Below are positions 8,331 through 54,381 of a DNA stretch of 64,000 nucleotides, piece after piece; within the stretch, counting starts at the first letter, position 1; each line of letters opens with the position of its first letter. The stretch is from Mytilus trossulus. Lineage: Eukaryota. Both the position numbers and the translations under genes were made by a program. Under the pieces are notes generated by a model. It was not told the DNA's origin, ran no database searches, and saw nothing but the letters and a program-made list of their open reading frames with translations. The stretch lies in contig NC_086382.1 in assembly GCF_036588685.1 (NCBI RefSeq), positions 77,996,001 to 78,060,000 of the forward strand. Direction: 5' to 3'.

Positions 8331-8399
8331 ACGCACAAAAAACAGGACAAGTCTCAGGACATAAAGTCACAAATTTGGTCAAACAAAAATTCACAAATA

Positions 8400-20790: not shown

Positions 20791-21488
20791 TTTAATTTTG
20801 AATACAGGTATTTACCAATCAAAATAGAAATATTCATACTAAATTTCATTGCATAAATCAGGAGTAAAAACTGATCCTGATAATTACAGGGGAATATCTC
20901 TGACAGGTTGCTTACCAAAGTTGTGTAATGCTGTGTTAAATGAAAGATTGATTAAAATGATGGAAAATACTACAAGTAATACACACTTTGGCTTTAGAAA
21001 AAATTACAGAACCTCTGATAGTATATTTGTGCTTAAGTCTTTAATAAACAAATACTTGCTCAAAAATACAATATATGCCTGCTTTGTTGATTTAAAAAAA
21101 GGCTTTTGATTCTGTCTGGAGAAAAGCTTTACTTTATGCACTGTATAAGGCAGGAGCAGGGAAAACATACTTAATATTATTACAGGACAGTATGAGGAAA
21201 CAAAATCTGCCTTCAAGCATCAAGAGTGGCACTCATAATATTTTGAGGATAAACCAGGGGGTTCATTGAGTCCTACTGTATTTAATTTATTTATTAATGA
21301 TTAAGATGCAGAGTTTTCAAATGAAAATAGCTGTCCATTAGAACTAATTGATACTAAAGTAGGATCTTTACAATTTGCTGATGACCTTTTAATATTATCT
21401 GAAAGTAAAAGAAGACCTGCAAAATAGTCAGAACAACTTAGAAAAATATTGTGAATAATGGTAATTGACTTTAAATATTAAACCCTAA

Positions 21489-21970
21489 CGCCTAGGCGTA
21501 GGTCGTGCCGGTCGGCAGCCCGAACCCGGATGGTAAGTCCGGTAGTGGTGACCGAAAGTTTACTTCTGCTTTATGTTTTTCGATGGTGGAAATACTTGCC
21601 TCTCTTCTATCTTTAGCCACATTTTCGACGTCGTCGAGGTGGAAAACACTACATTACTAGTAGTAGATAAATCTTTCAAATCCGCCTCGACCGTAGCGCC
21701 TAGGCGTAGGTCGTGCCGGTCGGTAGCCCGGACCCAGATGGGAAGTCCGGTAGTGGTGACCGAAAGTTTACTTCTGCTTTATGTTTTTCGATGGTGGAAA
21801 TATTTGCCTCTCTTTCTTTTCTTTAGCCACATCATCGACGTCGTCGAGGTGGATAGGACTAGTAGGGAAATCTTTAAGGCCCGCCTCGACACTAGCGTAG
21901 GTCGTGCCGGTCGGCAGCCCGGACACGGATGGTAAGCCGGTTAAGTGGTGACAGAAAGTTTCTCGATGGT
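21489..21970 (+). repeat. About 2.4 copies of a 208-bp structured repeat at the island's left edge
   Basis: gcgtaggtcgtgccggtcggcagcccg recurs at about 21496, 21704 and 21895; several short palindromes (cgcctaggcg, tcgacgtcgtcga, ccgga...tccgg). Confidence 0.85.
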
Positions 21971-22099
21971 AGACAGTTAGTAAAGACGACATAGTGGCTC
22001 TACGACCCTACGCCGTTGGCTACGGTTACTTTCTAAGCAGTCTAAGCACGTCTCGCAAACGTGACAGTGTAGAAATACCGTTAAGGATTAGGCAGGACC

Positions 22100-22626
22100 C
22101 TACGTGCCAAAAGCGATGACATGCCGGTGGCCCGTGTATAAAATTCCCCTTACAATTAAGTGGCTCTTAACTTTAAGATTAAGATTACCACCCGATACGG
22201 TCCTGTCGCTGGACCAAGGGAAGTATTCGTGGGTCATTAATCAGTTTTTCTATTTATTACAGAAATGAATAGTAAAGGTAGAAACGAAAGGAAGAAAAGG
22301 CAGAGGTAAGTCATCCAAGCAATTTGAACGCGAGGATACCTACTCCCCAGTACCAATACGGTCACTTTTTAAGCAGTCCGTGTGTACGGGTCCAGAGGAT
22401 TTTAGCGTTGGTCTCATCGCATCTGACACGTTCACAAACGTGACCCTTAAAGATTCGGCAGGATCCTAGTTCTTTCGATGCCATTCCGGTGGCCCATGTT
22501 TAAACTCCCCCTTACAATTAAGTGGCTCTTAACTTTAAGATTACCACCCCATACGGTCATGTCGCTGGACCGCAGGACCAGGGGAAGTATTCGTGAATCA
22601 TTAACCGGTTTTTCTATGTATTACAG
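22100..22626 (+). promoter_or_regulatory. Duplicated upstream/leader block ending in a splice acceptor (third copy 25915-26085)
   Basis: ccccttacaattaagtggctcttaactttaagatta...gtcgctggacc...gggaagtattcgtg...tttttctat..attacag occurs three times, each just before an ATG (22265, 22629, 26101). Confidence 0.55.
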
Positions 22627-22628
22627 AA

Positions 22629-25493
22629 ATGAATAGTAAAGGTAAAGAAATGAAAGGAAGAAAAGGCAGAGGCAAGTCGTCCAAGCAATTTGAACGCGAG
22701 GATACCGATTCCCCGGTACCAAGGCCGTTGAGAGTGCCCACCCTGTACAAAGAGTCTAAAGCGCGAGAAGAGGGTGAGAAAGCTAGCCAAGCGTTTGCCG
22801 GCTGAGGGGGGAGCCGAAGTTGGAAAGGCATCCGATGTCGCGAGACAGGCCAATGCCGAGACGGTGACAAAGGTAGTCACGAAGGCTGAGGTAACCCCTG
22901 GAGCTGAGGAGGCAACGTCGGAAACTTTGGAGCCCGCCTCCAAGAAGGCTAAGCTTGTCGCAGCCTGGGTTCTTGATCATTTTAATCACTACCCGACTGA
23001 AGCAGAAATGGCTTTACTTCTTCCCCGGCGGGAGTCAAAGAGTGCACGAGTCCCTTGGATCAAATGCACCAATGTGTGGATGTAGACCTGGAAGTAGCTT
23101 GATCGGGTGGTGACGAGGTTCGACTCTCCACCTAAGTCCGTCTCCAATTCCGCATCGAGAGTTCCTTCCGGCCCTGTTGTTCACCGGAGCTAGGGGTCAC
23201 TGCAAAGGCCGTCCTGCCGGTAAAGGTGCAAACTACAGATGCACGAGCAGCCACGTATTCAAAATCGGGCTCACGGGCTGTTAGACAGTCTCTATTCATT
23301 GCAGCATCCACAGCGGAAACTAGTAAAGGGAAAGATGATGGCAGGAACGGGAAAGATGTCAAGACAGTCGACAAAAGTCTGAGTGTGGCCCGGTTTTTTG
23401 GTGACGGGGCCGCTCGTAACAGTATGCCCCTGTGCCTGACAACACAAGAACAACGATCAGTTTATCAGGATGCACAGGCCGATGGAACGTCCTCCCCTGA
23501 AGCCAGCGTAGACAACGCAAACTGCCTCTCTAGCTTTGCCCGCTGCGGTAATGGCTAAAACACAGACAAAAAATGAATGGGCTGTCGAAATGGGACGAAG
23601 TACTGCTAGTACTCACAAAGTGGAAGATCAGGCGGTGCGGAGGTGCCATCTGTGTAATCAGGAGAAGTCCGGCCATATGCGGCGCCATTTGCAGCGTGCC
23701 CATCAACGCTGCAATGAAGAGATCGACGTACCCCTCATTCAGTGGAAGCAAATGACCGCCGGACCTACTAATAAAAAGGCTCTTAAATGCCCTTACTGCA
23801 AACAATCTCACACTAGACTTAAGCGGCAATTGAAAACCGTACACAAAATGACCGATCCACTATTAATTAAAGATCGCCTGGTCGCAGCGGAATATCACGC
23901 CAGCAGACGGTCGATGGATTTATACAATTCGGTCATGACAGGCTTTGAAGCTTTCCTGTCCAGTAGAGGTGGCTACGTGTACAAGGCGTGCATCGTGAAG
24001 GACTTGCTACAAAAGGTTAAATTTATCGTGTCCTTCGTTAATCCGAGTGCCTTCACTTATGGGTCGTTACGTGATCTGCAGAGATGTGGGAATAAAGACG
24101 GCATTCTAGAGCAGGTTGCCACATACGAGCACAGTTCGTCGGGCACGATGGTAAGACGTGAGAAGCCTCTAGGGGCTGGTACCAGGTCTAACTACGTGCT
24201 GGCACTGAAACGCTTCTGTGAGTTTATACACGGGAGGAAAGACCGGGTCCTATCCATCGTACCGGACCTACATTCCTGGGCTACGCTCACTCAGCATGTT
24301 AACCGTGTCTATACTACGTATAACATGGATAAGACCAGGGAGCAAGCCATGCGCCGCATTGACCAATCGCAGCTCCTTGATGGAGTGCAAGTCGGGCTAC
24401 ACTACATCCGTTTTAGCTGTAAGACTAAATGAGATACTATCAGCGGCTACGCCCTTGGATACATCTGTGGAGGCATACACTCTAGTCCGCGGCCACATTC
24501 TCATGCTATTGGAAATCATGAACGGTAAGACGGACGGCGAGTTCCCGAACTTGACCATGCAGGAGTGGCAAGAAGCCACACAAGTAGGAATTGATTACAT
24601 CGTCCGGGTTCGACGACATAAGGTAATCACTAAACCTTGTAACATCAACTTCCCGGGCCTAATCTATCGGTATATAAAACATTTCATTGAACACTTCAGG
24701 CCGATAGTGCTCAAAAAGGGTGTCGTTACGAGGAATGTGTTCCTCGGAACCACGGGCACACAGTTAACAAGTAGCCAAATCGTTGACGCCATGAATAAGT
24801 GCTGGCAAATATATGGTCGCGAGATTAACGTGAAACTGCCACGGTTTACCACAACCAGGCTGCGGAAGTTGATCGTTACGATCCATAGATCCACCACCCA
24901 GTCTAAGTCACAGGATGTCCTTGCCGCCCACATGGCTCATTCATCCGCGGTTGCAGACCGTTGGTATGACATGGGTCAGGGTACGTTTAAGTCCTCAAGG
25001 GCAGGCAACATCATTATTAATGGTGTATGGTCCTCGGTATTGAATAAAACAGCTGTCAAGGTAGAGACGACGGAGGAAGAACACATTGATGGGGATGTAG
25101 ACGATCCTAGTGACATCGATGAAGATGAGGAGGACGCCGAAGCACTGGCGGGAGAACTGGAGGGTCGGTCTGTTAGCGCTCACGACGGGATGGATCTGCA
25201 CGCCGTCCCGTTAGTCCAAGAAGTCCTCCGCTCAGCCCAAACCTCCTACAGTCACCGTGGCCGGCATCATTGCAGATTCAGACTCTACGCCTTTCGCACG
25301 AACCTTGACGACGATGCAGCGCTGCTTTCAGAGCTACATCAGCGAACACCGTGACAATCGGGATCTAAAAGTGTCAACTGCGGACATCAAATGAAAGCTG
25401 AAATCCGAACCGCCCCCTTTCTCTAGTTGACTTGATAACTACGGGGCAACAAAGATAGCGGAGCGTATCCTCTATCTTGTGCGTAAGCCATGA
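22629..25493 (+). pseudogene. YR1: K/A/E-rich N-terminus, two C2H2-like fingers, tyrosine recombinase, acidic tail (frameshifted)
   Basis: ORFs 22774, 23226, 23536 and 24218 join by frameshifts. Fingers CHLC...HLQRAH and CPYC...LKTVH. YR boxes NGKTDGEF (Arg replaced by Thr), VRRHKV, TTTRLRK, AHMAHS, ADRWYD (Tyr present). Confidence 0.8.
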
Positions 25494-26100
25494 ATTTTAT
25501 TTGGTGAGGCAGACGGGATGTGAACCAGAAGAAGAATGGCCTAATGCTAAAAGTGACGTTTTTCTTTTAATCTTTTTTATGCCCAAGAGGGTGACTTTTA
25601 TTTTTATATTTTTATACTGTTATTTTTACCCGTTGTCAAGCTGGTAGTTTTTTTTTGCCACCCCATCTTTTCAACGGGGGTTGACGGACAGATTAGTGGC
25701 CCCGCACTGCTGTCCAAAAGAACTATCGGGCAAGTCACGGGCAAAACCTTAACCATCGGGTAAGGCATGGGAAAACCAAAAAAATATTAAGTCCCGCTTA
25801 TGTCCGGTACGCCCGACACGAATCAAGGGAAATTATCGGGGAATAATGCATTCGCCTGCTTATGTCTGACACGGCCTAACCCATCGGGTCAAGACTTAAA
25901 GCTTCCGTTACCTGCGTGCCAAGGGCGATGCCATTCCGGTGACACGTGTATATACTCCCCCTTACAATTAAGTGGCTCTCTTAACTTTAAGATTAATATT
26001 TCCACCCCATACGGTCATGTCGCTGGACCGCAAAACCAGGGGAAGTATTCGTGGGTCATTAACCGGTTTTTCTATTTATTAGCAGCCCGAATTTACATGC

Positions 26101-27089
26101 ATGGCCTCCACGAGAAAATATCCCGCTACAGAGAGCGGCAGCGGACCGCAGGCTGAGTCACACTGCGTGTTCCATACTCCCAGCAGATATGGTAAGCACA
26201 GCCTGGAGAACATTCTAGCCGTGAAAATTATCATAGAGCGTATTCCAGCTGGTACCGCCTCGTGGCTGACAAAGAAAGAGACAGTGATGCAGCGGATGGC
26301 AAGCAAAATAACACTCGAGCCCGCTGCCGTCGTCGCAACGGCTCCGTCCGATTGCCGGGGTAACAAAGGTGTAGCACACCAGGATGAGGCCGATGATGCG
26401 GCTACTGTCGACGAGGCCAAGTCCATCAGTCGGGAGAGGAAAGCTCTTAAAAAAGAGGAAAGGAAAGCCAGAAAGCTAGCCAAGCGGTTGCTTGATGAAG
26501 GGGACGCAAAAGCTGTCGCGGGACAGGCCAAGGCCAAGAAGGCTAAGGTAACCCCTGAAGCCGACTCGGCGGTAGTCGTCGAGTCTAATCAAGTGGAGGC
26601 ACCGTGCAAGAAGACTAAGCTTGTTGTCGCCTCGGACAAAGATGAGACAAAGAAGAGAGCGAGAGACATATCCACGCGTTTGCCGGCTGATGGGGAAGCC
26701 GAAGTTGGAAAGGCCAAGGCCAATGCCGAGACGGTGACCAAGGTAGTCACGAAGGCTGAGGTAACCCCTAAAGCTGTAGAGGCAAAGTCGGAAAAAATGG
26801 AGCCCGCCTCCCATGGGTTCTTAAATATAGTGCTGAATTCCCGAATGAGGAAGAAATTGCAATGTGTGTTACTCATCCCCGGCCGGAGTATAAAGAGTGC
26901 GCGAGGCCCTTGGATTTAATGATCCCATGTGTGGATGTAGACCCAGAAGTAGAAGCGCCTGATCGGGTGGTGACGAGGGTCGACTCTCCACCTAAGTCCG
27001 TCTCCACTACCGCTATGCCTATGCAAGTTCCTTCCGGCCCTGTTGAACACTCTGATCCGGAGCTAGCGGTCCCTGCAAAGGCCGTGTAG
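26101..27089 (+). CDS. Lys/Ala/Glu-rich protein homologous to the YR1 N-terminus (repeated per unit; frameshifted in units 1-4, stops in unit 5)
   Basis: Shares RKLAKRL, AEVGKA and ANAETVTKVVTKAEVTP with ORF 22774; unit 5 restores the frame into WVLKYSAEFPNEEEIA, matching WVLDHFNHYPTEAEMA of YR1. Confidence 0.6.
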
Positions 27090-30000
27090 TCGGTTAAGGC
27101 GCTACCTTCCATTAATTGCTACTCATATTACATGTCACTGTAAATATTGTGAAATGCGCTACCTTCAATTAATTGCTACTTATATAACTTGTAAAGATAT
27201 CTCATAGCCAATGGGACAACTGTCGGTTGTTTGCTTGGGTCCTGACACCGCATAGGGTTAACCATGGGGTTTTTCCATATTATTGTTTCCTCTATTTTTC
27301 AGATATAAAGCAATGACGACGACGTACATTATCAAGTTTCGTGGAAGCAGGAAGGAATGGAATAGGCTGCTGGAAAGCAGTCATCCGTCAACAGAAGAAT
27401 ATAACTATTACAAACAAGAATTGAAGATCGCCACCTTCGAACGAACGAAAGAGATGGTGGAAATGATAGAGGGTCGGGGTGTTGAGTTCATCCTCATCCA
27501 CCCCGACCCCTATCCCTCTCCTGAAGAAGAGACTCGAAGGAGGGAGGAGGAGAAGACGAGGAAAAGTGAAGAAAAGAAAGAGAAGAATTTGCACCGCAAA
27601 AGAAGGGAGGCAGAGAGGCGGCTTCGAGGCAGGCCAGATCGCTCTGGCTCTGCGTGAACCTCATTGTATAGCATGTACCGGACATTTTACATGACTCTAC
27701 CAATTACTGTGATTTTGTTTTCTTTTTAAGTTTATATTTTTTTACCAGTGTAGGTTTCTTTGTTTATTATATGTATTTACATTATTTACACGCTGAGTCA
27801 CACTGCGTGTTCCATACTCCCAGCAGATATGGTAAGCACAGCCTGGAGAACATTCTAGCCGTGAAAATTATCATAGAGCGTATTCCAGCTGGTACCGCCT
27901 CGTGGCTGACAAAGAAAGAGACAGTGATGCAGCGGATGGCAAGCAAAATAACACTCGAGCCCGCTGCCGTCGTCGCAACGGCTCCGTCCGATTGCCGGGG
28001 TAACAAAGGTGTAGCACACCAGGATGAGGCCGATGATGCGGCTACTGTCGACGAGGCCAAGTCCATCAGTCGGGAGAGGAAAGCTCTTAAAAAAGAGGAA
28101 AGGAAAGCCAGAAAGCTAGCCAAGCGGTTGCTTGATGAAGGGGACGCAAAAGCTGTCGCGGGACAGGCCAAGGCCAAGAAGGCTAAGGTAACCCCTGAAG
28201 CCGACTCGGCGGTAGTCGTCGAGTCTAATCAAGTGGAGGCACCGTGCAAGAAGACTAAGCTTGTTGTCGCCTCGGACAAAGATGAGACAAAGAAGAGAGC
28301 GAGAGACATATCCACGCGTTTGCCGGCTGATGGGGAAGCCGAAGTTGGAAAGGCCAAGGACAATGCCGAGACGGTGACCAAGGTAGTCACGAAGGCTGAG
28401 GTAACCCCTAAAGCTGTAGAGGCAAAGTCGGAAAAAATGGAGCCCGCCTCCCATGGGTTCTTAAATATAGTGCTGAATTCCCGAATGAGGAAGAAATTGC
28501 AATGTGTGTTACTCATCCCCGGCCGGAGTATAAAGAGTGCGCGAGGCCCTTGGATTTAATGATCCCATGTGTGGATGTAAACCCAGAAGTAGAAGCGCCT
28601 GATCGGGTGGTGACGAGGGTCGACTCTCCACCTAAGTCCGTCTCCACTACCGCTATGCCTATGCAAGTTCCTTCCGGCCCTGTTGAACACTCTGATCCGG
28701 AGCTAGCGGTCCCTGCAAAGGCCGTGTAGTCGGTTAAGGCGCTACCTTCAATTAATTGCTACTCATATTACATGTCACTGTAAATATTGTGAAATGCGCT
28801 ACCTTCAATTAATTGCTACTTATATAACTTGTAAAGATATCTCATAGCCAATGGGACAACTGTCGGTTGTTTGCTTGGGTCCTGACACCGCATAGGGTTA
28901 ACCATGGGGTTTTTCCATATTATTGTTTCCTCTATTTTTCAGATATAAAGCAATGACGACGACGTACATTATCAAGTTTCGTGGAAGCAGGAAGGAATGG
29001 AATAGGCTGCTGGAAAGCAGTCATCCGTCAACAGAAGAATATAACTATTACAAACAAGAATTGAAGATCGCCACCTTCGAACGAACGAAAGAGATGGTGG
29101 AAATGATAGAGGGTCGGGGTGTTGAGTTCATCCTCATCCACCCCGACCCCTATCCCTCTCCTGAAGAAGAGACTCGAAGGAGGGAGGAGGAGAAGACGAG
29201 GAAAAGTGAAGAAAAGAAAGAGAAGAATTTGCACCGCAAAAGAAGGGAGGCAGAGAGGCGGCTTCGAGGCAGGCCAGATCGCTCTGGCTCTGCGTGAACC
29301 TCATTGTATAGCATGTACCGGACATTTTACATGACTTTACCAATTACTGTAATTTTGTTTTCTTTTTAAGTTTATATTTTTTTACCAGTGTAGGTTTCTT
29401 TGTTTATTATATGTATTTACATTATTTACACGCTGAGTCACACTGCGTGTTCCATACTCCCAGCCGATATGGTAAGCACAGCCTAGAGCACATTCTAGCC
29501 GTGAAAATTATCATAGAGCGTATTCCAGCTGGTACCGCCTCGTGGCTGACAAAGAAAGAGACAGTGATGCAGCGGATGGCAAGCAAAATAACACTCGAGC
29601 CCGCTGCCGTCGTCGCAACGGCTCCGTCCGATTGCCGGGGTAACAAAGGTGTAGCACACCAGGATGAGGCCGATGATGCGGCTACTGTCGACGAGGCCAA
29701 GTCCATCAGTCGGGAGAGGAAAGCTCTTAAAAAAGAGGAAAGGAAAGCCAGAAAGCTAGCCAAGCGGTTGCTTGATGAAGGGGACGCAAAAGCTGTCGCG
29801 GGACAGGCCAAGGCCAAGAAGGCTAAGGTAACCCCTGAAGCCGACTCGGCGGTAGTCGTCGAGTCTAATCAAGTGGAGGCACCGTGCAAGAAGACTAAGC
29901 TTGTTGTCGCCTCGGACAAAGATGAGACAAAGAAGAGAGCGAGAGACATATCCACGCGTTTGCCGGCTGATGGGGAAGCCGAAGTTGGAAAGGCCAAGGC

Positions 30001-33000
30001 CAATGCCGAGACGGTGACCAAGGTAGTCACGAAGGCTGAGGTAACCCCTAAAGCTGTAGAGGCAAAGTCGGAAAAAATGGAGCCCGCCTCCCATGGGTTC
30101 TTAAATATAGTGCTGAATTCCCGAATGAGGAAGAAATTGCAATGTGTGTTACTCATCCCCGGCCGGAGTATAAAGAGTGCGCGAGGCCCTTGGATTTAAT
30201 GATCCCATGTGTGGATGTAGACCCAGAAGTAGAAGCGCCTGATCGGGTGGTGACGAGGGTCGACTCTCCACCTAAGTCCGTCTCCACTACCGCTATGCCT
30301 ATGCAAGTTCCTTCCGGCCCTGTTGAACACTCTGATCCGGAGCTAGCGGTCCCTGCAAAGGCCGTGTAGTCGGTTAAGGCGCTACCTTCCATTAATTGCT
30401 ACTCATATTACATGTCACTGTAAATATTGTGAAATGCGCTACCTTCAATTAATTGCTACTTATATAACTTGTAAAGATATCTCATAGCCAATGGGACAAC
30501 TGTCGGTTGTTTGCTTGGGTCCTGACACCGCATAGGGTTAACCATGGGGTTTTTCCATATTATTGTTTCCTCTATTTTTCAGATATAAAGCAATGACGAC
30601 GACGTACATTATCAAGTTTCGTGGAAGCAGGAAGGAATGGAATAGGCTGCTGGAAAGCAGTCATCCGTCAACAGAAGAATATAACTATTACAAACAAGAA
30701 TTGAAGATCGCCACCTTCGAACGAACGAAAGAGATGGTGGAAATGATAGAGGGTCGGGGTGTTGAGTTCATCCTCATCCACCCCGACCCCTATCCCTCTC
30801 CTGAAGAAGAAACTCGAAGGAGGGAGGAGGAGAAGACGAGGAAAAGTGAAGAAAAGAAAGAGAAGAATTTGCACCGCAAAAGAAGGGAGGCAGAGAGGCG
30901 GCTTCGAGGCAGGCCAGATCGCTCTGGCTCTGCGTGAACCTCATTGTATAGCATGTACCGGACATTTTACATGACTCTACCAATTACTGTGATTTTGTTT
31001 TCTTTTTAAGTTTATATTTTTTTACCAGTGTAGGTTTCTTTGTTTATTATATGTATTTACATTATTTACACGCTGAGTCACACTGCGTGTTCCATACTCC
31101 CAGCAGATATGGTAAGCACAGCCTGGAGAACATTCTAGCCGTGAAAATTATCATAGAGCGTATTCCAGCTGGTACCGCCTCGTGGCTGACAAAGAAAGAG
31201 ACAGTGATGCAGCGGATGGCAAGCAAAATAACACTCGAGCCCGCTGCCGTCGTCGCAACGGCTCCGTCCGATTGCCGGGGTAACAAAGGTGTAGCACACC
31301 AGGATGAGGCCGATGATGCGGCTACTGTCGACGAGGCCAAGTCCATCAGTCGGGAGAGGAAAGCTCTTAAAAAAGAGGAAAGGAAAGCCAGAAAGCTAGC
31401 CAAGCGGTTGCTTGATGAAGGGGACGCAAAAGCTGTCGCGGGACAGGCCAAGGCCAAGAAGGCTAAGGTAACCCCTGAAGCCGACTCGGCGGTAGTCGTC
31501 GAGTCTAATCAAGTGGAGGCACCGTGCAAGAAGACTAAGCTTGTTGTCGCCTCGGACAAAGATGAGACAAAGAAGAGAGCGAGAGACATATCCACGCGTT
31601 TGCCGGCTGATGGGGAAGCCGAAGTTGGAAAGGCCAAGGACAATGCCGAGACGGTGACCAAGGTAGTCACGAAGGCTGAGGTAACCCCTAAAGCTGTAGA
31701 GGCAAAGTCGGAAAAAATGGAGCCCGCCTCCCATGGGTTCTTAAATATAGTGCTGAATTCCCGAATGAGGAAGAAATTGCAATGTGTGTTACTCATCCCC
31801 GGCCGGAGTATAAAGAGTGCGCGAGGCCCTTGGATTTAATGATCCCATGTGTGGATGTAAACCCAGAAGTAGAAGCGCCTGATCGGGTGGTGACGAGGGT
31901 CGACTCTCCACCTAAGTCCGTCTCCACTACCGCTATGCCTATGCAAGTTCCTTCCGGCCCTGTTGAACACTCTGATCCGGAGCTAGCGGTCCCTGCAAAG
32001 GCCGTGTAGTCGGTTAAGGCGCTACCTTCAATTAATTGCTACTCATATTACATGTCACTGTAAATATTGTGAAATGCGCTACCTTCAATTAATTGCTACT
32101 TATATACCTTGTAAAGATATCTCATAGCCAATGGGACAACTGTCGGTTGTTTGCTTGGGTCCTGACACCGCATAGGGTTAACCATGGGGTTTTTCCATAT
32201 TATTGTTTCCTCTATTTTTCAGATATAAAGCAATGACGACGACGTACATTATCAAGTTTCGTGGAAGCAGGAAGGAATGGAATAGGCTGCTGGAAAGCAG
32301 TCATCCGTCAACAGAAGAATATAACTATTACAAACAAGAATTGAAGATCGCCACCTTCGAACGAACGAAAGAGATGGTGGAAATGATAGAGGGTCGGGGT
32401 GTTGAGTTCATCCTCATCCACCCCGACCCCTATCCCTCTCCTGAAGAAGAGACTCGAAGGAGGGAGGAGGAGAAGACGAGGAAAAGTGAAGAAAAGAAAG
32501 AGAAGAATTTGCACCGCAAAAGAAGGGAGGCAGAGAGGCGGCTTCGAGGCAGGCCAGATCGCTCTGGCTCTGCGTGAACCTCATTGTATAGCATGTACCG
32601 GACATTTTACATGACTTTACCAATTACTGTAATTTTGTTTTCTTTTTAAGTTTATATTTTTTTACCAGTGTAGGTTTCTTTGTTTATTATATGTATTTAC
32701 ATTATTTACACGCTGAGTCACACTGCGTGTTCCATACTCCCAGCCGATATGGTAAGCACAGCCTAGAGCACATTCTAGCCGTGAAAATTATCATAGAGCG
32801 TATTCCAGCTGGTACCGCCTCGTGGCTGACAAAGAAAGAGACAGTGATGCAGCGGATGGCAAGCAAAATAACACTCGAGCCCGCTGCCGTCGTCGCAACG
32901 GCTCCGTCCGATTGCCGGGGTAACAAAGGTGTAGCACACCAGGATGAGGCCGATGATGCGGCTACTGTCGACGAGGCTTAGTCCATCAGTCGGGAGAGGA

Positions 33001-34356: not shown

Positions 34357-34563
34357 TTTATTGTTGTGTTGTTTTATTTTATATATGATATTTTTTATTA
34401 TAAATAAAAAAAAAAATCCATTTTTTTTTTGTTACACATAACAAACAAAAGAGTTACAGGTATATATTATTTATTTCTATGTACAGGTATATATATTATT
34501 TATTTGAAATATACGTATAATACAACATGGTACAGATATATACAAGCAAAACCCCTGACCACC

Positions 34564-34917
34564 CTACCCGCCTCTAACAGGGATAGCGATAAGCTTATGC
34601 GTAGCATCACCGTGAAGTACCACCACAGCAGTGCGCTCTTGGACATGGCACTCGCTGCATGGTAGTACACGGTAACCCCCACTCATAGGCCTATCCCTTC
34701 CTCTATACACGCAGAATAAATAGGTAATACTATATACAGATATATACACAAGGCAACGACAATGTACAAGCAAAAGATACCCCGGTCCAGCCTGCCCGCC
34801 CGCCCTATCAGGGATAGCGATAAGCTTATGCGTAGCATCACCGTGAAGTACCACCACAGCAGTGCGCTCTTGGACATGGCACTCGCTGCATGGTAGTACA
34901 CGGTAACCCCCACTCAT
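34564..34917 (-). CDS. Duplicated small Cys-containing ORF (MSGGYRVLPCSECHVQERTAVVVLHGDATHKLIAIP...)
   Basis: Two near-identical 231-bp-spaced copies (ATG at about 34917 and 34686), each preceded by tttattctgcgtgtatag on the minus strand. Confidence 0.35.
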   Translation of the reverse strand: MSGGYRVLPCSECHVQERTAVVVLHGDATHKLIAIPDRAGGQAGPGYLLLVHCRCLVYISVYSITYLFCVYRGRDRPMSGGYRVLPCSECHVQERTAVVVLHGDATHKLIAIPVRGG

Positions 34918-35019
34918 AGACCACCCTAACTCTATACACGCAGAATAAATAAGTAATACTATATACAGATATATACACAAGGCAACGACAATGTACAATA
35001 TATATATACGAGGCCTCTG

Positions 35020-35660
35020 CCTTTCCCTTTCCGTTGGTACGAGGCGCGGGTATATATGGTTCGTCCCTGCTTCAAGCAGCGGCGGACAGTTTCATCGGTT
35101 GCGGCCTTTCCCTTTCTGCCTATACGAGGCACGGGTAGATATGGTCCGTCCCTGCTTCAAGCAGCGGCGGACAGTTTCGTCGGTCGCGGCCTTTCCCTTT
35201 CTGCCTGTACGAGGCGCGGGTAGATATGGTCCGTCCCCTACTACAAGCAGCGGTGGAAAGTTTCATTAATCGCGGCCTTTGGCTTTTAGCGGGCGACCGC
35301 GGGTCTTACTACTGGCAGGGGTAAAAAAAATATTTTTCATTGGGAAGAAATGTTCACGTCCGAGGATTTTTCTACGAAATACATCGCAAGATCTTTTAGC
35401 GGGCTACCGCGGCCTCTTGCGACGACCAGTGGAAAAAAAAAATTCATCGGGAAGAAATGTTCACGTCCGAGGATTTTTCTACGAGGTACATCGCAAGATG
35501 TTTTAGCGGGCTACCGCGGCCTCTTGCGACGACCAGGGGACAAAAAAAATTTCATCGGGAAAAAATGTTCACGTCCGAGGATTTTTCTACGAGGTACATC
35601 GCAAGATCTTATAGCGGGCTACCGCGGCCTCTTGCGACGACCAGGGAAAAAAATTTTCAT
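35020..35660 (+). repeat. Two adjacent GC-rich repeat blocks (about 85 bp x3; about 110 bp x3.5)
   Basis: gcggcctttccctttctgcct..acgaggc.cgggtagatatggtccgtccc and tttagcgggctaccgcggcctcttgcgacgacca...aaatgttcacgtccgaggatttttctacga; a related copy lies at 36060-36145. Confidence 0.85.
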
Positions 35661-35699
35661 CAGTGAATATTTCACATTTAAATGAATTATTCAGTGAAA

Positions 35700-36020
35700 A
35701 TGTTGCACATAACGCAGATAATAGAGGACCCCTCCACGGGACTGACGAGTGGGACAGGCCCGAAGCACATCATCTTTCAAGATGGTGTGCCGAAGGTAGT
35801 GGTGCGGGATGTATCCGTAACCAAGATCCAGAGGTCCGGATGGGAGTGGCGGCCGACGAAGATGCCGATGTCACAGATGAGGACCTGGGGGATCCCGACC
35901 ACGGAGAAGCCCACGGAGAAGCCGGAGCTGATAACTAGAAGGCTTATAAGTATCGATCTACACTGTTACTTGTTGAAATCGGTCCACACTTTTGAAAATC
36001 AGCGAAAATGTTACACATAA
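35700..36020 (+). CDS. Orphan ORF, weak paralog of 36205-36558
   Basis: IIEDPSTGLTSGTGPKHIIFQDGVPK aligns by eye with IIKDYHETSRATRTHTILRDGMWK; GC-rich coding-like patch. Confidence 0.35.
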   Translation: MLHITQIIEDPSTGLTSGTGPKHIIFQDGVPKVVVRDVSVTKIQRSGWEWRPTKMPMSQMRTWGIPTTEKPTEKPELITRRLISIDLHCYLLKSVHTFENQRKCYT

Positions 36021-36204
36021 CGTTTACATTTCATTTCATCGAGGATCCGCGGAAGACGTTTTAGCGGGAGGCCGCGGGTAGTACGATTAGAAGGGGGAAA
36101 ATAATTTCAGCGGGGAGAAATTTCTATGTCCGAGGATTTTTCATCGAGAGGCAGCGGGCGGATATTCCCCAATGTATCACATAACATTTACATTGCAGGT
36201 GTTA

Positions 36205-36558
36205 ATGAAAGAATCCAACAAGGTTATCATCAAGGATTACCATGAGACTAGTAGGGCGACTCGGACGCACACCATTCTTCGGGATGGTATGTGGAAGGAC
36301 CTGACGTGGAGTTCGCCAGATGTGAACATCCCACCGCCTAGTGAGCCTTGGTGGCTGGCCCGCGTCCAAGACGCCAGAAGGATGGACCAGCAGAGGATTG
36401 AGAGGAAGATTGGACAGGAGGCAGCGTGGTGGGCACGGGAGGACAGGACCCGCTGCATGTCAGGAATGCTAGCGGGTATGCCTAGCAGGTTTGTCCTAAA
36501 TACAAGTTTGGGACGGCCTGTTAGGAGCCTGTTTAAGGGGAAGAGGCAGATGCGGTAA
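36205..36558 (+). CDS. 117-aa Trp/Arg-rich orphan ORF
   Basis: tttacattgcag acceptor at 36198, ATG at 36205; GC-rich coding-like composition. Confidence 0.45.
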   Translation: MKESNKVIIKDYHETSRATRTHTILRDGMWKDLTWSSPDVNIPPPSEPWWLARVQDARRMDQQRIERKIGQEAAWWAREDRTRCMSGMLAGMPSRFVLNTSLGRPVRSLFKGKRQMR

Positions 36559-38083
36559 GGACTGGGACGGGCAAGCCTGAGAGTCGGCGGTGAGCCAACC
36601 GCGTCCAGGCTTGGACAGACAGTTACCTTTCTATAGGTGAGTACCTTTACCTCCTATGTTAAATCTTTACTTTCAACTCTTCATGGGGAACTATTGTGCT
36701 ATGTATTCACACATTATTTTTTTCTTCAGGTAATGCAAACTTCATAGAGAACTGTTGTGCAATGTATTCACACATTATATATTTCAGGTAACTACGCAGG
36801 CGCCAGCCCTAAGATGGAGGTCCCTAGTGACCTGAAGGTGGAGGTGGACGCTGGCACGGCCGACCCGATCTTGTACGAGGCGCAGATAGTGCCCACGACA
36901 GAGCCTGTCACCGGTGAGTACCTTGTATTTAGATATTGGCCAACACGGTCAATCATTATCACTGTTAAGTACGTGAACATGCCTTGCTAATCTTTCCTTT
37001 CATTTTTTACAGAGGAGGACGTGGTGGAGGAGGGTGCGCCCCACGCCCAGACAGCCCCTGTCACTGGTGAGTACCTTGTATTAAGACATCGACCAACACG
37101 GTTAATCATTATCACTCTTAAGTACGTGAACATGCCTTGCTAATCTTTCCTTTCATTTTTTACAGAGGAGGACGTGGTGGAGGAGACCAGGGCCACCAAG
37201 CTGAAGGACGTGGTGCAGGAGACCAGGGCCACCCAGCTGAAGGACGTGGTGCAGGAGACGTACATAAATACCTCTGACTCTGGTAGGTACATTGTATTTA
37301 GATATCGGCCAACACTGTTAATTTTTATCACTGTTTAGTACGATAACATGCACTGAAAAATTTACACTTATTCTTACAGGGAAAGGATTGCAGGACTTGG
37401 ACCTGGAGATGGCCAAGCTTGACGCAAAGGAAGAGAAGAAAGCCCCGAAGGTTGGCAAGTTCACGGGGAAGAGGAGTGCGTCCAGAAGGAAGTCTTTGCG
37501 GTTTCTGGACCAGCTCGTCCCAGAGGTCCCAGAGGCAGCTCACATCGAACAGGAGAAGCAGGGTATGTATTATGAGTATTATTTCTTTTCAAAACTGTTC
37601 TATATGATTGTTATAATGCTACGCGTAATTGTGATAATGCTACGCATAATGGTGAATACTGTAGATGTACATGGCAAATATTTTTTTTACAAAGTCAACA
37701 GACATGTCATCAGCGGAGGACTCCTGCGATCAATATGTCCTGCCACCCAGCGCTGATGACTATTCATCGGACGACAGCGGTAAGTTTATCATTAGACATC
37801 GAAGTGACGGGCATGAAAATGTATCAAATTGTGAAAATATATTTTTAGGTGTGAAAATGTTACCAAGTAATATTGAAAGTTGACTATTTCCTTTTACAGC
37901 GGTAGTAAGTCCTTCGGACGAGGAGGCACCTCCTGCCAAGAAGAGGAAGGAGGTTTCCAAGGAGGAGAAGGACCTGTTAGGTAAGTTTAACAATCGTTAA
38001 CTTGACTTACTGTGAACGCGGTTGTCACATTTGTAGGACGGATTAGATTTGAAAATGACTGTTACCTGAATGTGAAAAAAAAA

Positions 38084-38312
38084 TTAGCGAGAGCCGCGGG
38101 TTAACGGCTGGAGACAGAGGGAAGCCTCAGAAAAAAACAAGGCGGCCCGAGAGAAAAAAAAACTAGCGAGAGCCGCGGGTTTACGACTTGACAAGGGGAA
38201 GCTGCAGAAAAAAACAAGGCGGCCCGAGAGACAAAAAAAACTAGCGAGAGCCGCGGGTTTACGACTTGGCAAGGGGAGGCCGCAGACAAACAAGCGGCCC
38301 GAGAAAAAAACA
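38084..38312 (+). repeat. Three intronic repeats of about 78 bp
   Basis: tagcgagagccgcgggttta...caaggcggcccgaga x3; the core resembles the tagcgggctaccgcgg repeats at 35286-35660. Confidence 0.8.
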
Positions 38313-38752
38313 AATTTTGTGAATGTTACTTATAAATGTTCGCACTTTTCTTGCATATTCTTCGGCCAAGGGGTTTGTCGCCCGCACTATTGCGGAGTTC
38401 GAGGCCATTTCCGATGGAACTGATGTTCAAGCTGTTGCTGCTGACGTGCCAGCGGAGGAGTCAGGGTCTGACACTGATTCTGAAGCTGATGACCCAGAGC
38501 CAGCTGACGAGCCAGTTCGAGGAAGGAAGAGGAGAGCCGCTACGACACGGTGAGTTTTATGTTAATATATTTTTTATTATATACTATATATACCCTTAAG
38601 GGCTATCAGTGTAAAACATATCGAACCCTTCTAAGCAACTTTATTCGGTGGACGGACTTTTGTATTTTTCTGACAATTGCTACCCGTCCTGTGAAAATGT
38701 TACACATAAATGTGAAAAAGTTTCGGACAGGAAAGGTCCCAAGACAGTTGCT

Positions 38753-38955
38753 CAGGATGCACAGGACGACGAGGCGTCCTTCCCTGAAGTCAGCTTTAAC
38801 GTTCAGGATGCACAGGAAGACGAGGCGTCCTCTTCTGAGGCAAGCTCTAACGTTCAGGATGCACAGGACGACGAGGCGTCCTCCCCTGAAGCAAGCTCTA
38901 ACGTTCCGGATGCACAGGACGACGAGGCGTCCTCCCCTGAAGCAAGCTCTAACAG
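38753..38955 (+). repeat. Four 51-bp coding repeats (QDAQDDEASSPEASSNV)
   Basis: Visible in ORF 38648; a single related copy (QDAQADGTSSPEAS) occurs in YR1. Confidence 0.9.
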
Positions 38956-40800
38956 GTCAGGCGGTATTACTAACAAGGCAGCGGTAACAAAGCAAACTGC
39001 CTCTCTAGGTGTGCCCACTGCATTGGCTAGACAACAGACAAGACATGAATGGGCTGTCGAGATGGGGAAGAGTACTGCTTGCAAAAAAAGAGATTGTACT
39101 CATAAGGTGGAGGATCAGGCGCTCGTGACGTGCCATCTGTGCAATCAAGTGAAGTCGGGCCATATGCGGCGTCATTTGAAACTAGCCCACCAGCTCTGCA
39201 ATGAGGAGATCGATGCACTCCTCGTTCAGTGGACGGAAATGACGACCGGTGCTGATAATAAAAAGGCCCTGACATGTCCATACTGCAAACAGTCTCACAC
39301 TAGACTGAAAAGGCACTTGCAACTTGTACACAAATTGACTGATCCGCTATTGATTTAAGATCGCCTGGTCTCAGCGGCATTATCACGCCCGGAGACGGCC
39401 GATGGATTTATATAAATCGGTCATGACAGGCTTCGAGGCTTTCCTGTCCAGTAGAGGTGGTTACACGTACAAGCCCAGTATCGTAAAGGACTTACTACAA
39501 AAAGTTAAAACGATCTTGTCCTTTATCGTTAATGCAAGTGCCTTCACGTTTGGGTCGTTACGTGATCTGCAGAGATGTTGGGATAAAGACGGCATTCTAG
39601 AGCAGGTTGCCACTAACAAGCACGATCCGGCCCGCTGGAAAGACGTGAGAAGCCACTAGGGGCTGGTACCATGTCTAACTACGTGCTGGCATTGAAACGC
39701 TTCTGTGAGTTTCTCCACGGGAGGCAAGACCGGGTCCTAGCCATCGTACCGGACCTACATTCCTGGACTATTCTCACTATGCATGTGAACCGTGTTTATA
39801 CCACGTATAACATGGAAAAGACTAGGGACCAAGCCATGCGCCGCACAGACCAGACTCAGCTCCTGGATGGAGTGCATGTCTGGAACTACACTACGTCCGA
39901 TTTAGCTGTAAGACTAAATAAAGTTCTATCAGCTGGTACTAAGCCTACGGTTTTAACTGTGGAAGCATTCACTCTAGTCCGTGGTCACATTTTGATGCTA
40001 TTGGAAATTATGAACGGTAAGAGGGCCGGCGATTTCCGAAACCTGACCATGCAGGAATTGCAAGAAGGCACGCAAGTGGGAATTGACTACATCGTCCGGG
40101 TTCGACGACATAAGGTAATTACTAAACCTTGTAACATCAACTTCCCGGGCCTCGTCTATAATTATATGAAAACCTTTATCAAATACTATAGACCGATAGT
40201 CCTGAAAAAGGGCATCGCTACGGAGAATGTGTTTCTTGGAACCTCTGGCGCACCATTAACTAGCAGCCAAATCGTTGACGCTATGAATAAATGCTGGCAA
40301 ATATATGGATCGGAGATTAACGTGAACCTGCCACGGTTTACCACAACCAGGCTGCGTAAGTTGATCGTCACGATCCATAGATACACCACCCAGTCTAAAG
40401 AGTCCCAGGAGATCATTACCGCCTACATGGCTCATTCACCCGCGGTTGCAGACCGTTCAACCGATAACAAAATATAAAAATGTACCGGTAACGGTACGCC
40501 CAAAAATATTTAAAAATTGAAAAAGAACAAAAAACACATAAAAATATTTAAAAAAAGAAAAAAATGTTGGTTACTCCCTATCCACTCCAGCTATCTTGGG
40601 CCTGAAAATACAGCATGAGATGTGTGTATCGCCTTCTTTGTCCAGTCGTTACAGTTGAGAGGGGGTGTCTGCCTGGGAAAACCAAAAAATACCAAGTCCC
40701 GCTTATGTCCGGTACGCTTGACACGAATCAAGGGTAAAGTATCGGGGAATAATGCATTTGCCTGCTGGGCTGGCTACCACGGGTCTCTACCGCGGCTTAC

Positions 40801-40859
40801 GCTTACTAGCTTCGCCAAAGACGGTCCCAAGCCCGTTTGCAAAAGAAGTAGGGGTAGGT
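40801..40859 (+). ncRNA. Twister-ribozyme-like motif (type P1) with altered catalytic core
   Basis: GCTTAC-TAG-CTTC-GC-CAAAG-ACG-GTCCCAAGCC-CGT-TTGCAAAA-GAAG-TA-GGG-GTAGGT. P1, P2, P4 and both pseudoknots can pair as in the canonical twister; UAA is UAG and GA is UA. Confidence 0.65.
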
Positions 40860-40948
40860 CGCAAGTTTAACTTTGCTTGCATAACATGCTAGGTACCAAC
40901 ATTTTTGATACTAACCTTTTACTCCTGTTATTTCAGAACCAACTAACC

Positions 40949-41197
40949 ATGAACCAACTAACCATGCAAAGCAGATTTCTTATCCATGTTTACGACCACG
41001 GCATGCAGGGGACAATGGACCAGGTGTGGCTAGTGATCAGAGGTCCCCTTCGAACCAGGCTGGCGTATATAGTCGGGCATCACATCGTTGCGTTCTGCCC
41101 GGCTATATGCCAAGAGATTATGGAGCTGATACTGCGTCTGGGTATCTTCTGCCGTCTACATTACCTACATTACAGGAGTCCGCCAGACGGAGAATGA
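40949..41197 (+). CDS. 82-aa orphan ORF
   Basis: ctgttatttcag acceptor at 40936, ATG at 40949; followed by a T-rich region homologous to the YR1 3' region. Confidence 0.4.
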   Translation: MNQLTMQSRFLIHVYDHGMQGTMDQVWLVIRGPLRTRLAYIVGHHIVAFCPAICQEIMELILRLGIFCRLHYLHYRSPPDGE

Positions 41198-44179
41198 AGA
41201 AGGAATCATGATTAAAGTGACCGTTTTTTTTAATCTTTTTATAATTCTATTGTGATTTTTTTATGCCTAAGTAGGTGATTTTATTTGTATATTTTTATAC
41301 TCTGTTATTTTTATTTGTGATTAAAATTAAAACAGCAGTGTACGTGGGTTCGATTCCCAAACTAGGCTTTAACGGGTAACGCACGGCTGGTGCAAAGCGG
41401 GCAGATTAGCTTAGTGGCCCCGCATTGCTGTCCAAAAGAACTATCGGGCAAGACACGGGAAAAAACTTAACCATCGGGTAAAGCATGGGAAAACCAAAAT
41501 ATTAACAAGTCCCGCTTATGTCCTGTACGCCTGACACGAATCAAGGGTATTTGGGGAAAACAAAATTATAAGTCAGGCTTATGTCCTGACACGAAAGGGT
41601 TAGGCTTAGCACAAACTGTAACCCTAGCTTATGGCCTGACACCCCTAGTTCAAACCTTCGCGAAGGTGTCGGACATGAGCACACGGACGACCAAGAGACA
41701 GACAGGACTGCTCCCGGGGTGTTGTCGCATGCCCACATAAGGACTGATAACCATCCATGTACACTAGACTACACTAGGCAGCCACCGGACCGGATGTCAA
41801 AGTAAGGAAGGGTCTGAACCTACGGTATGTAAGTTCGGGTCTTGTGGGTCGATCAGGCGAAAGGGACATAAGCATCAACTTGGGACCTCTGATAAATATA
41901 TTTATCTTGGGAAGAAACAACATATATTTATCTTGGGAAGAAACAACAAAGTAAAGCTGAAAAATACTTGCCAGCATTGGTAGACAAGTTTCGTTAAGTT
42001 TTAACCGATAGTAAAAAAAGTCACTTTAAAGACCCATAACGGGTCAAAATGGCAAAGTGTCTACGTAGACGCCTGGACCTCCAAACTAACCGTCCGATCG
42101 ATGCGAAACCTATATGTTTGGAAAACCCGACCCTTTTTTAGTCGGTATACCATATGGGGGCTAAATCGATTGAGAGTTAAAGAAACGTCAGCCTCGGGAA
42201 AATAGCATACGCCACGGCTATCTGCATATCTGCTTTTTAAACCCAGCCGACCCCTAGGTTTTTGACCTGACGGTCGAACCACTAAGGCCTACAAATTTAC
42301 TGTTTAATCGTACGAGGCGATCTGTAGAAAAAACTTTCCGCCCCACGGTCATGGTTCTGCTTATGTCCTGACAGTCCCGTGAAATACTACAAATCGACAC
42401 CGGGACCGGCTATGGGCGCAACAATCTTCCCCGCGTCCATACCTTCCTATTGTATAATATTTGTTTGATTTGTTACGAGATTATGATAGGTGCAGTGTTT
42501 GCCAAAGTGCATCAAGACGTCGGGATGTAAAAGTACAGAGCCACATCATATACAGTATGTAACGAAGAAACAATAAAAAGCAAAAACTGTGAGACAGGAA
42601 ACAAACAAGTTAGCACGATACCTCGATTTACAAGCACGTCAGATGCATACGAGAAAATAATAAACTTGTTTGGTACATATTTGTTTGTTTTTTTAGTGAT
42701 CAAGATTATTAACAATGTTGACTACTGTGTATTTGACAGTTTAACCTAATAAAATCATGTCTTTTTTTGATCACGCATCGTTGTCAACTTACGCGATTGT
42801 AATACAATTGGGGGATCAAGCTAGCTTAAAACAAGGTTCAACCCACCATTTTCTACACTAGAAAAAACCTGCATCAAGTCAGAAATATGACAGTTATCCA
42901 TTCGTTTGCATCTTCGCTAGCAAAGGGTTACGATCCACTCCCGCTATCTGCACCCTTGGCGGAATGAGCCAACATTTGTGATAACAATGGTCCGCCATCT
43001 AACGGAAGATAAAAATCACGCCCATTCCGAATGCGTTATTCTTGACCAATGATAGCACTTGAACTGTCCAATTTGGAGGTAAAAACACGTTAGCATCTAG
43101 CTTCTACACACTTGGTAAAGCCGGAAATGAAAATATACATCAACATTCATGCATTTGTGCATGAAACAAACACAGGAACTTCTATTGGTTGATTAAAGAC
43201 GATTCGTTTGATGTGTTTGAGCTTTAAATTTTGCCATTTAATACGCGACTTTCTGCTTTGAATTTTTCTCGACGTTCAGTTTATTTTCTACTTTAGTGGG
43301 TTAGTGAGTGGAATATAATCATGATTTTGTACGTATCTTGTCGTAACGGAATATTCGTTTGATTGATTGTTGGTTGCTTAACGTTCAGTGGCAAATATTT
43401 CATGCATGTTCACCTACGGACCCCTCAAAGAGTTGTTGCAAGGGTTCTTAACGTGCAAAGAGCGTGGCACTCTCTTTACACGAGGCATCGGATTTAACGT
43501 CCCCATCTGACTGGACGTGATTGCGAACTTCATGCATCCGGCACAGCCAAACGGACGCCCCACTTCGGCAAGCGTTTCACTGCCGGTCGTGAGAAGACCA
43601 AGTGACCATATTTCTATACCCCAGTCACCCTTGTGGATCGGAATATTCGTGACTGGTTATAAGAATAATAACAACTGGATTTAATTGGCTTGACATTTTA
43701 CCTCTCAAGAAGTATACATTTTGGATTCATATTCTTCCATTAAAAGTAAATGTGAATATACACTATTAAAGTCATTTATCTCGAGAGAAAACAATTAAGT
43801 TTCTTAGGGCAAACACGGAAAGTGGAAAAATACCGGAGGGACATTCAAACTCGCTAGTTAAAAATAAACTGACCATATCATAAACAACAAACAAACGTCC
43901 AAAACACAATATTGACTACTAGACACTTAGCATAATATAATAATAATATTTTCTGTTCTATTCTATATACAGATTTCGAATTGAGTGTGTAAGTATTCGG
44001 ACTACATCAGCCTTATGTTATATACATACGGAGTTATTTCTTATAATATATAAACGTAAATAAACAGACAAACACGTTTTATTTTACCCGGATACCCTTA
44101 TACTTGGCTTAATAAGTGTCGGACTTGCGGGTTGTCAAGAGCAATGGGTTGTCAGACTAATGGCGTGTAACCGAAAATG

Positions 44180-46899: not shown

Positions 46900-47587
46900 T
46901 TGGCGTCGTACGACAAAGAACGAATTATTTTTAGCAAGTGAGGCGGACTCCACGAGGGCGCCTTTGCAGATTTGAAAACTTTTGATGCTTCATTTTTTTG
47001 TAAATTTATTACGTAAGCATTACCATAAATTTACTACAGATTGATAGTAGATTAAATTGCATCAATTTTTTACAGTTTATCACGTATGAAATCTTCATAT
47101 TTGATATTTTTAATCAGATAAGGTTAGGAACTTCCGGTTATCGCCATTAGGTCCTTCTTCACGGAAGTCATTTGTCTGCAATACTCCATTGCGCAGACGC
47201 AAACCGGAAACAGTCTCGATTTCTGTAACTTAGTTTCGTACATTATTTTTATACTGAATTTAGACTGATATTTTATATTAAAGAGGGTATATACTCATAA
47301 ATATTTTATGAGTAACATATTATACACCGTATAATAAAGTACAGTGTGTCAACTGAGTCTCTGTTCCAGTTCTATCCTATTTTGTTGCCTGCATTTTTGA
47401 AATTGTAAAAGTAGTAGCTTTTATAAAAAAGCTGCATTGTTTATGTCTTGAGTCGCACATAAAAGTTGTGATTTTGAGATTTATTTGCCTTGAGTAATTA
47501 CTCAGTGCAAATTATAATATTGTTTTGAGTTGCATAATATTGTAATTTGAAATATTTAAGAATATTGTAATTTGAAATAAAGACAAC

Positions 47588-54243: not shown

Positions 54244-54381
54244 TAGATATTGTGTGGGATAATTTCATATGTATATAATGTATATATTTACTTTAGCATG
54301 TTCGTACTTAGTAATAAATGTGCATCATTTTCGCTATTGTGTTTTTAATCATGTTATGTTTTGATTTCCTCTCGTTCTAGG

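Follow-up and report, generated by a model that had tools for sequence, protein, structure and literature searches.

The 64-kb window of the Mytilus trossulus genome analysed here (64,000 nucleotides, C10:77,996,001-78,060,000 in a 1.3-Gb assembly) contains, about 0.42 Mb short of the end of the 78,455,819-bp contig C10, a GC-rich interval of 20,970 bp with two tyrosine recombinase (YR) genes. An earlier note, drawn from the sequence alone, had taken this interval (21,481-42,450) for a large, gene-rich mobile element. It is instead a composite, made of two nested broken copies of an element named here A, fragments of a second element, B, and a tandem array. In the reading that we consider well founded, A is a 6.85-kb YR DNA transposon, whose two broken copies lie with the B fragments and the five-copy array in a segmental duplication near the chromosome end, and which likely moved by circular excision and recombinase-driven reinsertion. 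The termini of A, a filled site with its matching empty sites and four distinct targets were mapped; the fold of the recombinase, the catalytic residues of its relatives and matches to ribosomal DNA (rDNA) spacers were established as well. What the interval holds is mobile YR DNA whose ends and targets are mapped; it is compact and decayed, not giant, and the finding stands neither as a giant cargo element nor as a virus. Coordinates below refer to the window and to its forward strand unless another contig, record or strand is named; the segmental duplication alone has no strand assigned.

The interval is compositionally distinct, as had been proposed: GC content per kilobase is 0.41-0.53 at 21-42 kb versus about 0.27-0.37 over most of the left flank, and it climbs from about 0.34 to 0.47-0.50 across 21.5-42.4 kb. 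GC content is also raised at 7-8 kb and in a Gypsy element at 48-56 kb. Mapping on other blocks decomposed the 20,970 bp into 12,199 bp of A-type and 7,810 bp of B-type sequence, with 0 bp assigned to both and 961 bp to neither. Copy 1 of A (21,481-25,893), delimited by blastn against the end-to-end unit in record L006 and against L007, lacks its left terminus (about 270 bp) and its right terminus and carries an internal deletion in ORF-A, an open reading frame (ORF) described below. Direct repeats of about 208 bp near its left end (21,482-21,961) are also found in L006, L007 and L014. Copy 2 begins inside the interval, where its left terminus (25,894-25,912), with the motif seen at the left ends in L006, L007 and L014, is inserted in the 3' region of copy 1. 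The A right subterminal region (42,302-42,450), with its GCTTATGTCC motif, has lost its final 115 bp or so. Positions 21,481 and 42,450 are not termini but truncation points, about 270 bp on the left and 115 bp on the right being missing relative to other copies.

Between these parts stand an array of five 1,640-bp units (26,149-34,359, 8,211 bp in all), with 1-10 nt of difference among the first four, and a fragment of element B (33,673-38,734) with small spliced genes on both strands, a TGTGAAAATGTTAC motif and the front exons of a multi-exon zinc-finger (ZnF) YR gene, gene B. Each array unit combines the middle of ORF-A with a B-type exon for a 114-aa protein. The recurring ORFs are pieces of ORF-A and this one 114-aa ORF, and the array supplies most of the orphan ORFs, at least six by the first count, that had made the interval look gene-rich. 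Other elements of that first description stand: the two ZnF-YR genes, the spliceosomal introns, and the repeat blocks, now resolved into the 208-bp repeats, the 1,640-bp array and a 108-bp tandem repeat. Among the interval ORFs scanned in Pfam, PHROGs and NCBIfam, none matched a reverse transcriptase (RT), DDE transposase, polymerase or capsid. Parts of the window are present in DNA runs of nine studies and all 30 bins of a sister unit are covered by contigs from three DNA runs, so that contamination or misassembly, named at the outset as a possible refutation, is unlikely.

Starships are fungal YR-mobilised DNA with DUF3435 captains, and one could read the whole 21 kb as a cargo-carrying YR element of this kind. 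The continuous GC shift would suit such an element, and so would the ESM Atlas comparison with DUF3435 captain clusters, in which a feature similarity of 0.90 (137-138 of 256) is a weak language-model resemblance and a lead only. The other blocks, however, differ in order and content, the only near-identical copy shares both flanks, a true A terminus lies in mid-interval, and DUF3435 was matched by none of 72 aligned relatives of the recombinase. A is much smaller than a Starship and holds no cargo within its defined ends, while the 21-kb composite moved only with its flanks. This reading is already largely refuted, and we give it almost no credence.

Termini, targets and movement of element A

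Comparison of copies defined the ends of A from one end-to-end unit of 6,854 bp at C10:247,441-254,294 (L006 2441-9294), which starts with AATTAAAGC and ends with GCTTTCAGT followed by AGTCAAG. The left terminus motif occurs at five places in four different upstream contexts and the right terminus at four, three chance-like matches elsewhere and two internal look-alikes being left out of these counts. The unit carries five GGACATAAGC-type motifs in its first 200 bp and six complementary ones in its last 1.45 kb. If joined, its ends would give 9-bp inverted arms (7 of 9 bases complementary) around a 7-bp spacer; this comes near to the layout in PMC3212892, excerpts of which describe YR core sites as two 11-13-bp inverted repeats around 6-8 bp.

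Four targets could be read from empty copies: one host site, one within the coding sequence of a YR gene (39,326) and two in the A 3' region (25,893 and 41,705). The host site (43,709-43,716) is empty in the window and filled by the end-to-end unit in the paralogous block C10:247.4-254.3 kb; the flanks of that unit join into uninterrupted host sequence at window position 43,712, in L002 and in L013. A contig of run X1 likewise shows the empty-site joint 2190->9295. At the right junction of the L006 unit sits a miniature inverted-repeat transposable element (MITE) with a TA duplication, and run X2 has that junction without the MITE. The target of copy 2 (25,893) is uninterrupted in L006 (twice) and in L007. 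The second self-target (41,704-41,706) is empty here and filled elsewhere: L013 shows its right junction, and contigs from runs X5 and X17 show its left one. Three of the four mapped targets thus lie inside A, and between every target and the A right end there are 1-3 bases in common, the last of them G. Another flank adjoins the same right-end position in runs X5 and X7. The empty sites sought for the element as first described therefore exist for the 6.85-kb unit, while none was found for the 21-kb composite, which is copied only with its flanks.

From these features a pathway can be proposed. A large ZnF-SAM-YR protein would bind the repeated subterminal motif (GGACATAAGC on the left, its complement on the right), and would bring the ends together to form a core site, with 9-bp inverted arms on either side of the 7-bp spacer. 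A would then be excised as a circle, which we infer, as the joined ends were not seen, and would insert at sites sharing 1-3 bases with the spacer. The present clusters would result from repeated insertion into older copies and, later, from deletions, amplification in tandem and exchange among chromosome ends.

Several observations weigh against this account. The circular forms anticipated by the earlier note did not appear: no right-to-left junction was present at the right terminus among the listed contigs of four runs, in a check that leaves out eight loose ends and with contigs that drop rare forms. The empty-site contig of run X1 may derive from paralogous duplications and not from polymorphism. 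Only the left junction was observed at the target in YR coding sequence, and one left junction (L007) is degraded. Two motifs of left orientation also sit in the 3' part of the unit, and the arms, which pair at 7 of 9 bases, fall short of the textbook length of 11-13 bp. No fully intact copy of A was found in the genome, by searches that give lower bounds. For element B, the ends could not be defined and no longer copy was found.

Run X2 shows, on L006 8,107-9,292, a 1.2-kb derivative with the left terminus at a depth of 412, versus about 20-70 on YR-body contigs. Since no contig of equal depth covered the right terminus, it was not read as a circle; the derivative suggests a local amplification in the X2 animal. 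Matches in run X17 were not retained as expression, since they include rDNA reads. A 5-kb insertion splitting the YR gene of A (L013 7,331 to L014 2,444, C14:81,022,331-81,027,444) encodes a His-Me finger endonuclease (PF05551, E 5e-13) and is possibly a KolobokP-type element, a candidate label.

The recombinase family among known systems

The two recombinase genes of the window are relics. YR1 (23,550-25,354) encodes two C2H2 fingers, a SAM-like core-binding domain and a catalytic domain, with a frameshift near 24,400 and Thr in place of the catalytic Arg. YR2 (38,745-40,477), which is part of A copy 2, is split over three frames and truncated just before the catalytic Tyr. With these lesions, both genes are dead. 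Neither rises above a Pfam cut-off. YR2 is nonetheless matched by 310 protein clusters (at 50% identity) at E<=0.001, and an alignment of 72 of these relatives shows conservation of at least 90% in each of the catalytic columns R, K, R, H and Y. Phage_integrase was matched by 29 of these 72 relatives at E<=0.01, and the SAM-like domain Phage_int_SAM_1 by five. An AlphaFold model (predicted local distance difference test, pLDDT, 87) gave as top PDB folds lambda Int, XerH, XerA and Cre. The ratio of non-synonymous to synonymous substitutions (dN/dS) among the YR copies of the genome is 0.21-0.29, a range indicating that they diverged under purifying selection.

A unit of A codes for one or two ORFs. 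ORF-A, 637 aa long from its ATG in the copy at C10:252-253 kb, is weakly constrained (dN/dS 0.69-0.80), and its fold could not be recognised, the model reaching a pLDDT of 33 and ESM Atlas giving no usable match. The public protein P0170 has the tail of ORF-A in frame with a ZnF-YR, so that ORF-A and the recombinase may once have been one long gene.

The family is widespread across marine animals and, by its domain matches, of neither CryptonA nor Starship type. The clusters that carry an organism name, among 30 looked up, come from Mytilus, Lineus, Mizuhopecten, Littorina and Clytia, and ESM Atlas added chordate, arthropod and cnidarian clusters. The closest named homologues of both the YR and ORF-A come from Mytilus species, and word-based protein searches reached only Mytilus or close relatives. 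Scans of IMG/VR with three YR proteins found no relative, and scans of JGI metagenomes by protein and by terminus motif found nothing; both reach close relatives only. A description of the family was not found in the literature searched, a scope to which Repbase, Dfam and the 2020 Kojima review do not belong.

Cryptons are among the systems most like A. As outlined in the consulted portion of PMC3212892 (Kojima and Jurka 2011), they are DNA elements of a few kilobases, with a YR as sole recognisable enzyme, no RT, a proposed circle and a short sequence shared at the junctions. The YR is likewise the only enzyme, and RT is absent, among the scanned ORFs of the end-to-end A unit and of the interval. 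A may differ in its repeated inverted subterminal motifs and imperfect 9-bp inverted arms, whereas Cryptons are given, in that portion, 4-6-bp direct repeats at their termini and no terminal inverted repeats; at the four A sites 1-3 bases are common to target and right end. Its protein does differ, having a pair of C2H2 fingers, an N-terminal region of considerable length and a helical domain at the C-terminus, and DUF3504 or GCR1_C, the CryptonA and CryptonF domains, were matched by none of the 72 relatives at E<=0.01. CryptonV elements are target-selective animal YR DNA transposons first reported from cnidarians (Kapitonov and Jurka 2012, as partly relayed in PMC8869645 and PMC4455052). Compared by description only, they resemble this family in having cnidarian members, here Clytia, but the targets reported for some of their families are microsatellites, and none of the four mapped A targets is one. 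From DIRS-order elements A is set apart by the RT/RNase H, which was not found beside the YR.

In Tn916/Tn1549 and in lambda, inverted core arms surround a spacer of about 7 bp, subterminal sites are repeated, and little homology with the target is needed. A is alike in its arms, its spacer of about 7 bp, its subterminal repeats and its slight target homology, and the folds match; it differs in having a eukaryotic zinc-finger protein. The coupling sequences of Tn916 vary, whereas the right-end spacer of A is identical in three copies and one base different in a fourth. By analogy, A would work like a Crypton and, mechanistically, like the circle-forming prokaryotic YR elements. By the features tested, it is none of CryptonA, CryptonF, DIRS or Starship. 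The first description of a YR element fitting neither animal class well thus survives in the lack of an RT and in the distance from DIRS and CryptonA, and fails on size and cargo, the unit being 6.85 kb long.

Ends, targets and a predicted core site are now given for a large animal YR family barely recognised by Pfam, with named members in mussel, scallop, periwinkle, ribbon worm and a hydrozoan. Eukaryotic YR transposition becomes testable on a defined substrate.

Ribosomal DNA spacer pieces

Element A carries pieces resembling rDNA spacers in rRNA order and sense, two 5' external transcribed spacer (5'ETS)-like segments lying ahead of its gene and a 3'-spacer-like segment behind it. The first (21,974-22,029; rRNA sense) aligns over 56 bp, with 84% identity, to the part of the 5' external spacer that precedes the 18S gene by about 540-490 bp, and the second (22,403-22,446; 87% over 45 bp) is collinear with it. 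The third (41,340-41,423; rRNA sense) matches, at 83% identity in 93 aligned columns, rDNA lying about 345-436 bp beyond the 28S end (E 1e-19). Local alignment scores for the spacers were 69-122 versus shuffle maxima of 35-40; scores for the four controls (strand or swap) lay at 27-50, and two slightly exceeded their own shuffle maxima (46 versus 45, 50 versus 37). In element B, the 108-bp tandem repeat (35,283-35,661) resembles the 107-bp rDNA intergenic repeat at about 60%, and a B copy at C10:149.4-149.9 kb has in its place 5.2 true rDNA repeats (up to 91.7%).

Several of the chromosome ends with YR blocks also carry rDNA. Contig ends of C14 and C4 hold 45S rDNA mixed with telomere repeats, with more arrays at C14:237-339 kb, and subterminal nucleolus organizer regions are known in Mytilus according to the part of PMC4106214 consulted. 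Units of about 17 kb in L040-L045 (C14:81.717-81.773 Mb) and L049 (the C4 end) have a TTAGGG tract in their intergenic spacer and run into the terminal telomere tract; these GC-rich telomeric units, considered as a related element, proved to be 45S rDNA. In 714 kb of non-rDNA sequence (66 records), all 16 rDNA-spacer matches lay in or beside YR blocks. As the records were chosen for their closeness to YR loci and duplicates cannot count as independent, these 16 matches amount to about three associations.

Most likely, the rDNA pieces were acquired by exchange with the nearby subterminal rDNA arrays. A bolder possibility, which we regard as unlikely, is that this YR lineage of the rDNA and chromosome-end compartment mimics the rRNA unit, so that the nucleolar machinery transcribes or tethers the elements, which then reinsert there. 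It is suggested by the placing of the spacer-like segments before and behind the gene of A and by the trade of tandem repeat for rDNA intergenic repeat in B. If functional, the pieces would show a DNA transposon exploiting the nucleolus in a new manner. Against a function stand a 175-bp 5'ETS piece at a third YR type, which is antisense to the gene and absent in the C4 copy, the lack of any YR match in an unplaced contig, and the mapped targets, none of which lies in rDNA.

The same association could be explained if the YR genes were domesticated host genes acting on rDNA or chromosome ends, with the rDNA-like pieces as their binding or regulatory sites. The position of the YR blocks near chromosome ends, several with rDNA, and the 16 of 16 count would agree with this. 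Every examined copy of A is broken, however, mobility is evident from the filled and empty sites, rearrangement and nesting are seen among the copies, and the antisense piece of the third type, missing from one copy, looks like debris; we find domestication very improbable.

Element B, duplication and neighbouring sequences

Element B contains several small spliced genes under purifying selection. One of them is the 114-aa ORF, whose first of five copies (27,262-27,657) lies behind a splice acceptor and which has paralogues in a C9 tandem array; with dN/dS at 0.09-0.22 it forms a genuine coding family, so that B does hold some small genes. The array belongs to an interstitial B fragment in L063-L064 (C9:62.999-63.006 Mb) with six tandem paralogues of this ORF, and no YR match occurs in the 50 kb fetched around it. 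Spliced low-complexity exons at 36,730-38,560, with GT-AG introns at 36.7-38.6 kb, form the front of the gene B recombinase; in L008 and L056 they are followed by the ZnF exons and YR exons of gene B, and here they are deletion-joined to YR2. A third multi-exon ZnF-YR type (L016 4,970-9,280, L018, L019, L060 and L071), duplicated at the C4, C10 and C14 ends, has a catalytic exon 55% identical to that of gene B, and three of its copies adjoin the 175-bp 5'ETS piece. An AT-rich satellite of at least 65 kb, built on the TGTGAAAATGTTAC motif of B (L076-L081, C14:80.885-80.953 Mb, with L074 and L085-L086), apparently arose from a transposon repeat. The 150 kb around these satellites held no longer B element and no further rDNA-spacer match at E<=1e-6.

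The earlier note had also envisaged a fragment of an integrated DNA virus. B, and possibly the whole lineage, might be the remnant of a large virus with a C2H2-SAM-YR integrase, like the endogenous nimaviruses, a reading that we judge improbable. According to the part of PMC10871703 (Kawato et al. 2023) consulted, telomere-type nimaviral YRs combine C2H2 fingers, a SAM-like domain and a YR, multi-exon YR genes occur in 28S-targeting whispoviruses, and some genes of majaniviruses contain introns. The small genes of B, its repeated motif that also forms the long satellite and its undefined ends would fit such an origin. In the same partial source, nimaviral YRs are associated with telomeres and rDNA, as the YR blocks lie near chromosome ends with rDNA-like pieces, and related non-viral YRs are noted in decapods. 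Compared by description only, these viruses differ in being about 300 kb long with viral genes, whereas A measures 7 kb, has no viral gene found in it and targets neither telomere repeats nor 28S. The scanned ORFs and the long ORFs of the fetched B neighbourhoods yielded no viral gene, with libraries that cover animal viruses poorly. The IMG/VR scans speak against a virus within their reach, BFVD fold matches are generic integrases at 8-14% identity, and no mapped target has a telomere-repeat or 28S junction. The 30 family clusters looked up included no nimaviral YR. What is left of the proposal is a possible larger or viral origin for B alone. The YR family shares its domain plan with nimaviral integrases and may be their source.

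The spread of transposon A through the genome follows chromosome ends. Of the 18 matches to its YR, the 15 close ones make up four blocks and a single fragment, which lie at the two ends of C10 and of C14 and never more than 0.76 Mb from a contig end; a 224-bp terminal fragment of A lies 1.4 Mb from the C10 end. The duplication holding the closest A copy spans at least 52 kb (11,374-63,124 in the window) and is shared, mostly at 95-99%, with C14:557-626 kb. As this closest block includes both flanks and the Gypsy element, and two other blocks share about 20 kb of the right flank, recent spread is by segmental duplication. Transposition is older, since runs labelled as other organisms also contain self-insertion junctions. 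In the duplicated copy, 2.2-kb units more than 99% identical have expanded within ORF-A into a 22-kb array (L003 7,097 to L021 9,524, C14:592-614.5 kb).

The Gypsy element (47,576-56,179, forward strand) encodes gag, a protease and a pol of 1,209 aa and has, in addition, an ORF for a TatD DNase (E 4e-37). It is absent between 46,652 and 56,712 in two paralogous blocks, which gives its empty site, and the RT at 50.6-54.2 kb belongs to it and not to the YR elements. A broken long interspersed nuclear element (LINE) RT fragment, recognised by eye from the translation (20,830-21,480), adjoins the truncated left end of the interval. Further to the left, on the reverse strand at 6,900-8,350, a GC-rich remnant (0.485) holds a more distant YR of the superfamily, with weak blastp matches at E ~5e-4.

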